The notes: generated by a model not told the origin, from the sequence alone. A stretch of DNA of 64,000 nt from Gaiellaceae bacterium (GCA_035518635.1 DATIXI010000041.1:13017-77016), one strand, 5' to 3'; positions 37,412 to 45,230 are shown, counted from the first letter of the stretch. Numbers and translations are program-made.

Positions 37412-39022
37412 ATGCCTGCCGGGACTCTCACGATGACCTTCACCTCCGGCGACGGGCTGCTCCTAACCGGCCTGCTCGCCGCCGGGCTCGTCCTGCTCTC
37501 GATCTCCCAGTTCGTGCGGGTGCCCTACCCGATCCTGCTCGTGCTGGGCGGGCTCGTGATCGCGTTCATCCCGGGGATGCCGCACATCGAGCTCCCGCCC
37601 GACCTCGTCCTCGTCGCCGTCCTTCCTCCCCTCCTCTACGGGCTGGCGTTCTTCGCCTCGCTGCGCGAGCTGCGCGCGAACATCAAGCCGATCGGCCTGC
37701 TCGCCGTCGGGCTCGTCCTGATGACGACGGTCGCCATCGCGGTGGTGGCTCACGAGACGATCGGGCTGGGGTGGCCCGAGGCATTCGTGCTCGGGGCGAT
37801 CGTCTCGCCCACGGACCCGACGGCGGCCACCGCGATCGGCCAGCGCCTGGGCCTGCCGAGACGCCTGCTCGCGATCATCGAGGGCGAGAGCCTCGTCAAC
37901 GACGGGACCGCCCTCGTCGCCTACAAGTTCGCGGTCGCGGCCGTCCTGACCGGCACGTTCTCGCTGGGCATGGCCGCGGGCCGCTTCGTGCTCAGCGTCA
38001 CCGGCGGGATCGCGATCGGGCTCGCCGTCGGCTACCTCGTCCGGCAGCTGCGCAAGCGGCTCGACAACCCGCCGGTCGAGATCACGGTCTCACTCCTGAC
38101 CGGCTACTTCGCGTTTCTCCCGGCCCAGGCCGCCGGCGTCTCCGGGGTGCTCGCCGCGGTCACCGTCGGCATCTACATGGGCTGGCACACGCCCGAGCTG
38201 ACGACCGCGCAGACCCGGCTCCAGGGTCAAGCCGTCTGGGAGATGGTCTTCCTCGTCCTGAACGCGCTGCTGTTCGCGCTCCTCGGCCTCCAGCTGCCGC
38301 AGATCGTGGACTCGCTCTCGGGCTACTCGACCGCGACGCTGATCGGCTACGCGGCCCTCGTCAGCGGCGTCGTCATCGGGGCGCGAATCGTCTGGGTCTT
38401 CTTCACCCAGTACTGCCCGCACGCCCTCAGCCACTGGGCCCGCCGGCACGATCCCATGCCTTCCTGGAAGGCGAAGGCGGTGCTCGGCTGGTGCGGGATG
38501 CGAGGAGCGGTCTCGCTGGCCGCGGCGCTCGCGCTGCCGTTGACGACCGACGCGGGAGGCGCGTTCCCGGGTCGCAACCTGATCGTCTTCCTGACGTTCT
38601 CGGTGATCCTGACGACGCTCCTGCTCCAGGGCCTGACGCTGCCGCGCCTCATCCAGGCGCTCGATCTCGACGACGGCGGTCTCGCGGACAAGGAAGAGGC
38701 GAGAGCGCGCATCCACGCGTCCGAGGCGGCGCTCGTGCGGCTCGAAGAGCTGATCGCGGAGGAGTGGGTCCGGGAGGACACGGCCGAGCGGATGCGGGGC
38801 CTGTACCAGTTCCGCAGCCAGCGCTTCCAGGAGCGCTACGACCCCGACGGCGACGGCTCGGTCGAGAGCCGCTCGGTCAACTACCAGCGCCTGCGACGCG
38901 AACTCCTGGATGCGGAGCGACAGGCCGTCGTGGACCTCCAGCGAGGCGGCGAGATCGACGACGAGGTCATGCGCCGCGTCGTCCGCGACCTCGATCTCGA
39001 GGACGCGCGCCTGGACGCCTAG
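37412..39022 (+). CDS. Na+/H+ antiporter (CPA1/NhaP type) with C-terminal cytoplasmic helical domain
   Basis: About 12 TM helices; AFVLGAIVSPTDPTAA and IEGESLVNDGTALV motifs. Confidence 0.85.
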   Translation: MPAGTLTMTFTSGDGLLLTGLLAAGLVLLSISQFVRVPYPILLVLGGLVIAFIPGMPHIELPPDLVLVAVLPPLLYGLAFFASLRELRANIKPIGLLAVGLVLMTTVAIAVVAHETIGLGWPEAFVLGAIVSPTDPTAATAIGQRLGLPRRLLAIIEGESLVNDGTALVAYKFAVAAVLTGTFSLGMAAGRFVLSVTGGIAIGLAVGYLVRQLRKRLDNPPVEITVSLLTGYFAFLPAQAAGVSGVLAAVTVGIYMGWHTPELTTAQTRLQGQAVWEMVFLVLNALLFALLGLQLPQIVDSLSGYSTATLIGYAALVSGVVIGARIVWVFFTQYCPHALSHWARRHDPMPSWKAKAVLGWCGMRGAVSLAAALALPLTTDAGGAFPGRNLIVFLTFSVILTTLLLQGLTLPRLIQALDLDDGGLADKEEARARIHASEAALVRLEELIAEEWVREDTAERMRGLYQFRSQRFQERYDPDGDGSVESRSVNYQRLRRELLDAERQAVVDLQRGGEIDDEVMRRVVRDLDLEDARLDA

Positions 39023-40383
39023 TCGGCGGGCCGTCCTCCGAAGTCGCGCACGAACGCGTCGAACACGCCATTCGTGTCGCCCGGCACGAGGACCGACGCG
39101 TACGAGGAGAACGCGAGGCGCCGGTCGTCCGCCGTGAAGGCGACGCCGCTCACCGAGCTCGCGTCGGCACCCTGGTTACCGCTCTGAGCGAGGCTGGCGA
39201 GGACCGTTCGGCCGGTCCGGAGGTCGCGGACGAAGACATCGGTGATGTCGTTCTCGTCGCCGGTGACCAGGTTCGACGCCAGGGAGGTGAACGCCACGTA
39301 ACGGCCGTCGGCACTGATGCTCAGGCCGCCGAGGTTCTCACCGTTCGCCTGACGCCCTCCGCTCGAGACGCTCACGCGCGTCGTCCGGTGCGTCCTCCGG
39401 TCGCGGAGGAAGATGTCGAACGTGCGGTTCGTGTCGCCAGTGACGAGATTGGTGTCCGCCGAGTGAAAGGCCACGTAGCGGCCGTCCGCGCTGATCGCCG
39501 GAGCATTGCTGCCGGTGAGGGTGCGGTCGCCCGTCCCCTGCTTGCCGGAGCTGGACACGCTCACGCGTTCTGTCCTGCCCGTTCGGCGGTCGCGGACGAA
39601 CACGTCGCTGAGCTTGTTGGTGTCGCCCGGGACGAGGTTGGTCGCCGAGGACTGGAACGCGACGTAGCGGCCGTGCGCGCTCAGGGCGGGCTCTGTGCTC
39701 TCGCAGTAGCTCGCCTTGCACCTCGCCTGAGCCCCACGGCTGTTTACGCTCACCCGCGTCGTCTTGCCGGTGGCGAGATCGCGCACGAAGACGTCCGAAA
39801 GCTTGTTGGTATCGCCGCGAACGAGGTTCGACGCGAGCGACATGAAGGCCGCGTAGCGGCCGTCCGCGCTGATTGTCGCGAACGAGCTCGGGCCATTCGC
39901 CTGGTGTCCCGCGCTGCTGACGCTGATGCGCTTCGTCACTCCGCTCGCCTGGTCGTGCAGGAACACGTCCTCCACGCGGTTCGTGTCGCCCCGAACGAGG
40001 TCCGCCGCGTCCGACTGGAAGACGACGTATCGCCCGCTGGCGCTGATCCCGCCCGCGGTCGAGCCGCCCCAGGGGTCGGAGCTCGGCGCGGCCTGGGCGC
40101 CGCTGCTCGAGACGCTTACGCGTGTCGTCGTGCCGGACGAGCGATCGTGCACGAAGACATCCCACCGGTCGTTCGTATCTCGCGGGACCAGATTTGTCGC
40201 CTGGGAGTTGATCAGGACGTAGCGGCCGTTCGCGCTGATGCCGGCCGCGTAGCTGTCCCGGTCACCCTGGAGGCCGCCGCTCGAGACGCTTGCGCGTGTC
40301 GTCGAGGGCGGAGCCGCGGCGGCGGCGGAGAGAGCCAGGAAGCCGAAAGCGATCGAGGTCAGGAGTGTTATCGCCTTTTCCAC
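39019..40383 (-). CDS. Exported beta-propeller protein made of ~8 PD40/TolB-like repeats
   Basis: GTG 40383 lies 5 nt after GAAGGAGGA. Signal peptide VEKAITLLTSIAFGFLALSAAAAA. The unit RVSVSS.G.Q.NG.S...ISADGRYVAF.S.A.NLV.GDTN...DVFVRD repeats 8 times. Confidence 0.8.
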   Translation of the reverse strand: MEKAITLLTSIAFGFLALSAAAAAPPSTTRASVSSGGLQGDRDSYAAGISANGRYVLINSQATNLVPRDTNDRWDVFVHDRSSGTTTRVSVSSSGAQAAPSSDPWGGSTAGGISASGRYVVFQSDAADLVRGDTNRVEDVFLHDQASGVTKRISVSSAGHQANGPSSFATISADGRYAAFMSLASNLVRGDTNKLSDVFVRDLATGKTTRVSVNSRGAQARCKASYCESTEPALSAHGRYVAFQSSATNLVPGDTNKLSDVFVRDRRTGRTERVSVSSSGKQGTGDRTLTGSNAPAISADGRYVAFHSADTNLVTGDTNRTFDIFLRDRRTHRTTRVSVSSGGRQANGENLGGLSISADGRYVAFTSLASNLVTGDENDITDVFVRDLRTGRTVLASLAQSGNQGADASSVSGVAFTADDRRLAFSSYASVLVPGDTNGVFDAFVRDFGGRPAD

Positions 40384-44550: not shown

Positions 44551-45230
44551 CAGTCGGGGTCGAAGCGGTAGCCAACCCCACGCACAGTGTGGATCAGCTT
44601 CGGCTGCTTCGGGTCGTCTTCGATCTTGGCTCGCAGCCGCTGCACAGCTGCGTCGACGAGCCGCGAGTCGCCGAGGTAGTCGTAGTTCCACACGAGCTCG
44701 AGCAGCAGCTCCCGCGTGAACACCTGCTTCGGCCGTCGCGCGAGCTCGAGCAGGAGCCGGAACTCGGTCGCGGTCAGCTCGATCTCCTCACCCTCGCGCC
44801 TGACGGTGAAAGCGCCGGGATCGATGACGAGGCCGCCCGCGGCGATTACGTGATCGCCCGGGTCGACGGCCGAGCGCCGAAGCACTGCCTTGATCCGCGC
44901 GACGAGCTCCGGCAGCTCGAAGGGCTTCGTGACGTAGTCGTCGGCGCCGAGCTCGAGCCCGACCACGACGTCGTGCAGGTCGGAGCGAGCGGTCAGCATC
45001 ACGATCGGCGTCTGGCTCTCGCGCCTGATCTCGCGACACACCTCGAACCCGTCCAGCGAGGGAAGCATCACGTCGAGGACCACGAGTTCGAACGACCCCT
45101 GCCGAAATTGCAGCAGCCCCTCGCGACCATCGCCGCTCGCAGTCACCCTGAAGCCCGCCTGCTCGAGGCCAAGAGTCGTGATCTCCCGGATCGAGGCATC
45201 GTCCTCCACGAGCAGCAGATGCTCGTTCAC
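44550..45230 (-). CDS. OmpR/PhoB-family response regulator, MtrA-like
   Basis: LLLVEDD, VVLDVMLP..DG, PIVMLTARSD, GADDYVTKPF. Winged helix QVFTRELLLELVW, VQRLRAKIEDDP, TVRGVGYRF. GTG 45230. Confidence 0.9.
   Translation of the reverse strand: MNEHLLLVEDDASIREITTLGLEQAGFRVTASGDGREGLLQFRQGSFELVVLDVMLPSLDGFEVCREIRRESQTPIVMLTARSDLHDVVVGLELGADDYVTKPFELPELVARIKAVLRRSAVDPGDHVIAAGGLVIDPGAFTVRREGEEIELTATEFRLLLELARRPKQVFTRELLLELVWNYDYLGDSRLVDAAVQRLRAKIEDDPKQPKLIHTVRGVGYRFDPD

Follow-up and report, generated by a model that had tools for sequence, protein, structure and literature searches.

A locus resembling mtrA-mtrB-lpqB in a Gaiellaceae bacterium, with a GerMN-Kelch protein in the position of LpqB and predicted MtrA-type operators

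Introduction

The MtrA-MtrB-LpqB system is known from Mycobacterium, Corynebacterium and Streptomyces. Its third member, LpqB, is by definition a lipoprotein of GerMN-Gmad1 composition whose gene lies beside mtrAB (Rigden & Galperin 2008, PMC2732212). The system is essential or important for mycobacterial cell division, cell wall homeostasis and intrinsic drug resistance, while the signal of MtrB and the contribution of LpqB remain unknown (PMC12818412). Here, we analyse a locus with a similar layout at positions 39019-45230, on the minus strand, of a 64,000-nucleotide (nt) stretch of DNA from a soil Gaiellaceae bacterium (GCA_035518635.1, DATIXI010000041.1:13017-77016). This whole stretch is called the window hereafter, and all coordinates refer to it. 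In transcription order, the locus encodes a response regulator (RR), a histidine kinase (HK) and three exported proteins, P1, P2 and P3. We think it probable, though well short of assured, that this locus represents, in Gaiellaceae, the "three-component" system MtrA-MtrB-LpqB by which actinobacteria sense their envelope, accompanied by a small clustered regulon, in which the third protein has been domain-swapped.

The resemblance to MtrA-MtrB-LpqB concerns the OmpR-type regulator and the HAMP kinase, which match MtrA and MtrB best, the extracytoplasmic GerMN protein with a propeller, whose gene lies downstream of the kinase gene, and a predicted operator that carries the cGTnAC half-site with the 11-bp period reported for MtrA. 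In contrast to the described systems, the third protein of the window has a Kelch instead of a Gmad1 propeller, lacks the N-terminal region of LpqB and possesses a membrane helix rather than a lipid anchor. Moreover, a separate Kelch lipoprotein gene is located between the kinase and the GerMN genes, and, instead of simple co-transcription, regulator-dependent promoters of their own are predicted for the accessory genes. The flanking genes also differ, and the regulator-kinase pair remains under the NCBIfam equivalog cut-offs.

Other systems are comparable in their general organization. WalRK with YycH/YycI in Firmicutes and CseABC in Streptomyces are essential or envelope-stress systems, in which extracytoplasmic accessory proteins, the products of neighbouring genes, modulate the kinase. 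Among the NCBIfam models, RR scores next best with YycF and CseB. Nevertheless, their accessory proteins are unrelated in fold, with neither a GerMN domain nor a propeller, and HK matches WalK and CseC far less well than MtrB. Our literature searches retrieved no paper on MtrAB-LpqB-type loci in Gaiellales, Thermoleophilia or Acidimicrobiia, nor on a GerMN-Kelch fusion, and nothing relevant on LpqB or MtrAB in Rubrobacter. No paper was found on the present arrangement either, in agreement with the initial annotation of this stretch, made from the sequence alone, which knew of no described MtrAB locus with this architecture.

Results and discussion

The regulator and the kinase

The five minus-strand open reading frames (ORFs) that the initial annotation had read in the locus are present, and Pfam domains could be assigned to each of them, in agreement with its reading of both coordinates and domains (Table 1). 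The NCBI annotation of the same metagenome-assembled genome (MAG) gives identical starts and lengths for RR, HK, P1 and P2 (HUK95104.1 to HUK95101.1), under the public names "response regulator transcription factor", "HAMP domain-containing sensor histidine kinase", "hypothetical protein" and "GerMN domain-containing protein".

RR is composed of Response_reg (PF00072) and Trans_reg_C (PF00486) domains, that is, the receiver and winged-helix architecture of OmpR-type regulators. Its top NCBIfam model is MtrA (NF040689) and its best match among all solved structures is MtrA of M. tuberculosis (2GWR; 227 bits, 51% identity), compared with 180 bits for RegX3 and 158 bits for PrrA. The region of the recognition helix is almost the same in the two proteins (RLVDAAVQRLRAK in RR and RLVNVHVQRLRAK in MtrA), and the members of the 90% cluster of RR carry the label "response regulator MtrA" in IMG. 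Regarding HK, hydropathy and Pfam recover the MtrB-type architecture, consisting of a first transmembrane segment (~6-31), an extracytoplasmic loop of ~110 amino acids (aa; ~32-144), a second transmembrane segment (~145-170) and then the HAMP, HisKA and HATPase_c domains. The top NCBIfam model of HK is MtrB (NF040691), whereas the second-best family reaches 173 bits, more than 110 bits lower, and CseC 161 bits. The alignment extends over positions 104-488 of the 507 of the MtrB profile and includes part of the sensor loop. Sequence searches for solved structures of MtrB or LpqB found none.

The two genes are translationally coupled: their junction reads TGATG, the start codon of HK sharing 1 nt with the stop codon of RR, which corrects the ATGA overlap previously proposed. 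The likeness of the pair to MtrA and MtrB, proposed in the initial annotation with short motifs of the regulator, was recovered by the profiles, by the structural match and by the IMG naming. From these sequence comparisons, the pair is MtrAB-like and probably represents the MtrAB of this lineage, the curated equivalog thresholds not being passed.

Indeed, several points weigh against this identification and against the explanation of the locus that we favour. Both proteins score under the cut-offs of the MtrA and MtrB models, which are equivalogs (274.7 against 300 bits for RR and 286.2 against 450 bits for HK), and RR obtains 260.6 bits with the CseB model, only 14 bits below MtrA, and 238 bits with YycF. 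The canonical neighbours of mtrAB-lpqB (tmk, comF, hpf and secA) were not found in the 64-kb window, within which RR and HK were judged, nor in four distant loci among the related ones (L055, L059, L062 and L075). In addition, the related loci were gathered from the side of the GerMN proteins, and the binding of the regulator, activation as opposed to repression, the start sites and the contact between P2 and the kinase are all inferred. The low scores, the proximity to CseB, the differing synteny and the missing Gmad1 domain would fit a pair that is not orthologous to MtrAB at all, namely a distinct envelope-stress system of the OmpR/EnvZ type (CseBC-like, for instance) that gained a GerMN partner independently, with a canonical mtrAB-lpqB located elsewhere in the genome. 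We nevertheless regard such an origin as improbable, as HK scores 286 bits with MtrB against 161 bits with CseC, over a match reaching into the sensor loop, and MtrA is clearly the best solved structure for RR. The predicted operator described below has the half-site and the spacing of MtrA, and a GerMN gene right after the kinase gene is the hallmark of mtrAB-lpqB (PMC2732212), here conserved across classes. As for the missing synteny, it was classed among the rejected leads, as giving no support either way.

P2, a GerMN-Kelch protein in the position of LpqB

The GerMN domain of P2 was identified with Pfam (Germane, PF10646; residues 76-168, E=6e-23, 82 bits against a cut-off of 23), which bears out a call that had been left to profile searches for verification. 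Kelch repeats follow, and both P2 and P1 are matched by Kelch_1 and Kelch_6. The AlphaFold2 model of P2 (pLDDT 84, pTM 0.75, with most of the propeller above pLDDT 90) contains a helix (2-21), a disordered segment (18-54), the GerMN domain (55-190) and a seven-bladed propeller (198-502). This propeller is of the Kelch type both by sequence and by fold, its top fold matches being Kelch domains.

Against the NCBIfam LpqB model (PRK13614), P2 obtains 39.7 bits for a cut-off of 802, and the match is restricted to positions 196-303 of the 572 of the profile, which correspond to the GerMN segment only; the N-terminal region of LpqB in this profile has no match in P2. The Gmad1/LpqB propeller domain (PF10647) was not detected in the propeller of P2 or in P3, even at E<=10. 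The N-terminus of P2 is a hydrophobic helix devoid of a lipobox cysteine, reading LLLSGGGSD where relatives read LAGCGSE. The lipobox is retained in only 18 of 120 homologues: more distant GerMN-Kelch proteins keep LAGCGS, and in the clade of the window the cysteine has been replaced (LAGWGS, LARGSE, LSGGGS). P2 is anchored in the membrane through this helix, which stays uncleaved, and not through a lipid. The earlier description of a GerMN-propeller protein that occupies the place of lpqB and is not a lipoprotein thus holds.

Like lpqB, the P2 gene is downstream of the kinase gene and on the same strand; P1 intervenes in the window, and the two genes are directly adjacent in relatives. Judging from its domains, P2 is the counterpart of LpqB but is not itself an LpqB, because the Gmad1 propeller, the N-terminal region of LpqB and the lipid anchor are all missing. 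Its architecture is not rare. More than 2,600 homologues of P2 were retrieved, nearly all of them from soil metagenomes and Gaiellaceae MAGs, and the GerMN-Kelch combination has thousands of homologues in soil metagenomes.

Among described architectures, P2 is also comparable to the GerMN-Gmad2 lipoproteins (PMC2732212). Its GerMN domain is 44-63% identical to those lipoproteins of this kind whose genes follow the same regulator-kinase pair, as they do in most Gaiellales and other deep-branching relatives, and the N-terminal motif (G)SE.AVSLG is common to both groups. However, in the clade of the window a seven-bladed Kelch propeller takes the place of the Ig-like Gmad2 domain, and the lipobox cysteine has been lost.

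Comparison of related loci

To place the locus in context, a scan with one genome per species gave 75 related loci (labelled L004, L005 and so on), onto which the five proteins of the window were mapped. Seen from the GerMN side, from which the loci were gathered and to which the linkage figures refer, a GerMN gene is found less than 5 kb downstream of the kinase gene and on the same strand in 56 of the 58 loci that have a kinase homologue, counted at the species level. This linkage spans the Gaiellales, other Thermoleophilia, the Acidimicrobiia and one Limnocylindrales MAG. The cluster is reduced to the regulator, the kinase and a short GerMN protein in 31 loci, and the five genes of the window occur together in about six species. 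Only 13 of the 58 kinase-bearing loci have P1 and only 22 have P3, and the order of these genes changes. The linkage to the two-component genes that had been expected for the propeller genes in related genomes is recovered for the GerMN gene, and for P1 and P3 only at these lower frequencies.

The short GerMN proteins have ~290 aa and combine GerMN with Gmad2, and a lipobox was seen in 19 of the 22 inspected. Such a lipoprotein is the ancestral-looking form of the third protein. The third gene of the Acidimicrobiia encodes a GerMN domain, an SH3 domain and an unassigned C-terminal domain. On this comparison of sequences, the regulator, the kinase and the GerMN protein form the constant unit. 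What varies is the C-terminal domain of the GerMN protein, and the propellers are accessory.

These distributions bear on the role of the three propellers. The initial annotation had proposed that the role of LpqB was split and expanded, and P1 (lipid anchor and propeller), P2 (GerMN and propeller) and P3 could then all act directly with the kinase in a multi-part sensor. The three proteins are indeed exported and encoded near the kinase on the same strand, P1 would supply the lipobox that P2 has lost while being a paralogue of its propeller, and the recurrence of the complete set in several species is in keeping with a joint function. Nevertheless, most of the related loci with a regulator, a kinase and a GerMN protein have no P1 or P3, and the order shifts. 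P2-type fusions exist without P1 (L009, L017 and L014), and P1 is found beside an unfused GerMN-Gmad2 protein (L027, L030, L038 and L043). Moreover, P1 and P3 each have a predicted regulator-dependent promoter of their own, as do exported proteins unrelated to them (the DUF6636 and ~160-aa proteins described below), and neither the P2 propeller nor P3, the two searched, matched the Gmad1 domain of LpqB. We therefore consider a multi-part sensor unlikely. What stands of the earlier proposal is the GerMN-propeller protein in the place of LpqB; a three-way split is not found in the related loci, where P1 and P3 are patchy. Because of this patchy presence, their shifting position and their own predicted promoters, P1 and P3 look like members of the regulon and not like obligatory partners of the kinase.

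Two side observations were made in these loci. In four of them (L062:7827-9320, L065, L072 and L077), the third gene, of the Acidimicrobiia type, encodes a lipoprotein of ~480 aa with GerMN, SH3_3 and a C-terminal region of ~180 aa without Pfam match, which would be a fourth kind of GerMN fusion encoded after the regulator-kinase pair. In one distant locus (L055:9287-10045), an L,D-transpeptidase gene (YkuD, PG_binding_4) directly follows the GerMN-Gmad2 gene, which fits the cell wall theme.

A shared 60-bp element

The alignment of the regions upstream of the P1 and P3 homologues yielded a 60-bp consensus (nTGTnnCnnAACCGTTACnnnnnnGTnACnGnnnnGTTGCnnnnnnnnnnnAnnATnnnn), composed of four cGTnnC half-sites with an exact period of 11 bp and, 10 bp further, a -10-like hexamer (GAGCAT, GACGAT or GAGGAT). 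There is no -35 hexamer, and a Shine-Dalgarno sequence and a start codon follow 20-30 nt after the hexamer. With a weight matrix built solely from the related loci, three copies and no more were detected in the 64-kb window (Table 1), with a maximum of -1.2 bits in the 30 shuffles used as control. Two of them precede P1 and P3, as the initial annotation had noted; the third full copy, which it had overlooked, lies between the RR gene and a divergent gene encoding a DUF6636 protein, 87-146 nt upstream of the RR start, with RR on the other strand. P2, as also noted before, has no copy of its own in the window and begins 23 nt after P1, which suggests that it is probably co-transcribed with P1.

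In the relatives, the element is found directly past the stop codon of the kinase gene in nearly all loci, and 20-30 nt ahead of the starts of genes for exported proteins. Across loci, the genes behind it encode the PD40 propeller, the Kelch lipoprotein, the GerMN protein, the DUF6636 protein, a secreted protein of ~160 aa and a small ORF of 65-77 aa.

The MtrA motif of S. coelicolor has been given as G/T-T-G/A-A-C-C-N5-G-T-G/T-A-C-N (PMC5650626), and that obtained by chromatin immunoprecipitation sequencing in M. tuberculosis as c-G-T/A-n-A-C/T-c, repeated after four bases (PMC6265350). Both the half-site and the spacing of the element match these published motifs, and the element is a predicted MtrA-type binding site. 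Its layout is also reminiscent of the pho box of PhoB. There, direct repeats arranged in tandem, with a period of 11 bp, take the place of the -35 hexamer and stop 10 bp short of the -10. The element likewise has tandem 11-bp repeats in place of the -35, a geometry that suggests activation by tandem regulator dimers; the analogy is one of layout only, as the half-site sequence differs from that of the pho box and there are four half-sites.

A search with the simpler pattern GTNACN-N5-GTNACN retrieved four places in the window, for ~0.6 expected. In the relatives, this pattern directly follows the end of the kinase gene in almost every locus, often as three or four phased repeats. The fourth place in the window, at 429-446, was rejected as a chance match, since it has no full-element score; it forms a GTCAC-N6-GTGAC palindrome, probably due to chance or to a hairpin, and is located between convergent genes, beside a malic-enzyme gene with cupin and ACT domains.

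The element could alternatively be a structured RNA leader or a terminator (hairpin CCGTTAC...GTRACGG), or the site of another DNA-binding protein. A hairpin of 7-8 bp can be drawn from GTTAC-N6-GTRAC, and the P1 and P3 copies share a second possible stem (GTTGC...CAAC). However, when 28 copies were folded together with RNAalifold, the result was -4.4 kcal/mol without any compensatory pair, and RNA structure was rejected: the half-sites are invariant in these copies while the spacers vary freely, and a hairpin leaves the four half-sites in 11-bp phase unexplained. Rfam, run on the whole window at gathering thresholds and on the locus at E<=5, returned only a tRNA-Asp elsewhere and two chance matches. 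Scans for terminators and sigma-70 promoters over 38800-45900 found nothing, no T-run follows the element, and one copy stands between divergent genes and not at a 3' end. With respect to another DNA-binding protein, the element travels with the two-component system in every lineage. Taken together, we judge either of these readings very unlikely. A further candidate, an extracytoplasmic function (ECF) sigma promoter read from GAAAC...CGTT within the element, was discarded on manual inspection owing to its unfit spacing.

Two small proteins encoded behind the element in relatives should be mentioned. In many loci (L004, L005, L012, L016, L027, L030, L033, L034, L038, L043 and L049), the ORF of 65-77 aa is the first after the P1 element (e.g., L038 ~7787-7984 and L049 ~7288-7494), and the P1 start follows 140-270 nt further. 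This ORF is conserved and has no signal peptide (e.g., ...ELASRQRNGLRVVLRWHPREDAVTVSVADDRTGDRFE...); it is absent in the window, where the element abuts P1. The secreted protein, of ~160-185 aa (MKL...GPLYGHVKSI...), is encoded behind the element in loci without P1 and P3, in the interval between the kinase and GerMN genes (L039, L040, L041, L042, L046 and L047), and also in L031 and L034, as a recurrent member of the local regulon.

P1, P3 and the divergent DUF6636 gene

In P1, the lipobox reads LLVAC, with the cysteine at position 32, and the Kelch-like repeats correspond to Kelch_6 and Kelch_1, as had been proposed. P1 is 40% identical to the propeller of P2 over its full length (E=2e-55), and P1 and the P2 propeller are therefore paralogues, which is consistent with a history of duplication or fusion.

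P3 consists of seven blades and not of about eight as first counted, according to both the seven DNA repeats of ~180 nt and the AlphaFold2 model (pLDDT 89.6, pTM 0.89; seven blades of four strands), whose top fold matches are to TolB. It has more than 8000 homologues, to which IMG gives the name "Tol biopolymer transport system component". For the start of P3, PGAP selects an ATG that is nine codons further upstream and falls within the -10-like hexamer of the promoter-like element. The GTG start of the initial annotation, at 40383 and 7 nt past the Shine-Dalgarno sequence GAAGGAGG, is more plausible.

The gene of the DUF6636 protein, divergent from that of RR and located behind the third copy of the element, encodes a protein with an N-terminal hydrophobic segment and has the same start in NCBI (HUK95105.1). 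Homologues behind the element were also found in six related loci (L004, L005, L027, L030, L043 and L049).

Table 1. Coordinates of the genes and of the predicted regulatory elements of the locus in the window
Feature	Position	Strand	Basis, score or remark
RR, OmpR-family response regulator, MtrA-like, 226 aa, GTG start	44550-45230	-	Pfam, NCBIfam, solved structures
HK, sensor histidine kinase, MtrB-like, 440 aa	43228-44550	-	Pfam, NCBIfam, hydropathy
P1, Kelch-repeat lipoprotein, 373 aa, 7 WTG/WDG blade motifs	42007-43128	-	Kelch_6, Kelch_1
P2, membrane-anchored GerMN + 7-bladed Kelch propeller, 502 aa	40475-41983	-	Pfam, AlphaFold2
P3, secreted 7-bladed PD40/TolB-like propeller, 454 aa, signal peptide	39019-40383	-	PD40 PF07676
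DUF6636 exported protein, 154 aa, signal peptide	45401-45865	+	Pfam PF20341, E=3.7e-12
Element copy, P1	43161-43220	-	69.9 bits
Half-sites, P1 copy	GTTGC 43218-43214, GTTAC 43207-43203, GTAAC 43196-43192, GTTGC 43185-43181	-	
-10-like hexamer CAGCAT, P1 copy	43170-43165	-	then Shine-Dalgarno GAGGAGG and ATG at 43128
Element copy, P3	40405-40464	-	65.8 bits
Half-sites, P3 copy	GTCGC 40462-40458, GTTAC 40451-40447, GTGAC 40440-40436, GTTGC 40429-40425	-	
-10-like hexamer GAGCAT, P3 copy	40414-40409	-	then Shine-Dalgarno GAAGGAGG and GTG at 40383
Element copy 3	45317-45376	+	52.0 bits; between RR gene and divergent DUF6636 gene
Half-sites, copy 3	GTTGC 45319-45323, GTTAC 45330-45334, GTGAC 45341-45345, GTTGC 45352-45356	+	
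-10-like hexamer GAGGAT, copy 3	45367-45372	+	

A possible mechanism

In the explanation that we favour, a Gaiellaceae MtrA-MtrB-LpqB system with a domain-swapped third protein and a small regulon, the kinase would sense the state of the cell envelope through its ~110-aa loop, jointly with P2, by analogy with LpqB and MtrB. The phosphorylated regulator would bind the half-sites as tandem dimers, in a geometry like that of PhoB on the pho box, and would thereby activate the P1-P2, P3 and DUF6636 units. The divergent third copy probably also lets the regulator control its own operon, and P2, the accessory sensor protein, would then come under feedback control. P1 and P3 would be envelope-located outputs or optional auxiliaries, and not the pieces of a split LpqB.

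A more elaborate possibility, which we put forward tentatively and hold to be rather unlikely, is that GerMN is a conserved module coupling to the MtrB-type kinase, while the fused domain (Gmad1, Gmad2, SH3 or Kelch) is an exchangeable ligand-binding "plug-in". The regulator would also induce free-standing propellers, P1 as a lipid-anchored copy of the plug-in and the TolB-like P3, which would compete with the sensor or extend it, resulting in a self-tuning modular receptor array.

Other features of the window

Beyond P3, we found a Na+/H+ exchanger gene (37412-39022), a gene for a protein with a 2TM domain (36664-37044) and, ~2.5 kb away, an ECF-type sigma factor gene with a C-terminal SnoaL_2-like extension (35553-36524, minus strand); no link between the latter and the locus was found. 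Behind a tRNA-Asp gene (18861-18934), the G+C content is lower for ~11 kb (0.66-0.69 compared with ~0.71 elsewhere; 18861-30000). This region, which may be an integrated island, includes two paralogous ORFs without Pfam match (19120-20247 and 21364-22611) that share 80% identity over 88 nt at their 3' ends. Direct repeats at 13441-14478, of 201 nt (13692-13892 and 14278-14478, 89% identical) and 119 nt (13441-13559 and 13952-14070, 71%), could stem from a recent duplication of this segment or belong to a repeat protein. Finally, an ORF at 52606-53397 encodes RTX/hemolysin-type calcium-binding nonapeptide repeats (PF00353, E=6e-27), with a 27-nt periodicity of the DNA at 52918-53245.

Implications

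The value of these observations is mainly comparative, lying in natural domain swaps around a constant GerMN core and in a conserved predicted operator. The triad of regulator, kinase and GerMN protein reaches deep-branching and mostly uncultured Actinomycetota. As GerMN alone is constant while the C-terminal domain is swapped, it would be GerMN that acts with the kinase, whereas the propeller or Ig-like domain would serve as a lineage-specific ligand binder. Should the plug-in reading hold, the natural domain swaps would reveal the long-unknown signal of MtrB and LpqB. In addition, the element of four half-sites offers a ready-made and testable predictor of the regulon in Gaiellales, an abundant soil lineage with almost no experimental genetics.

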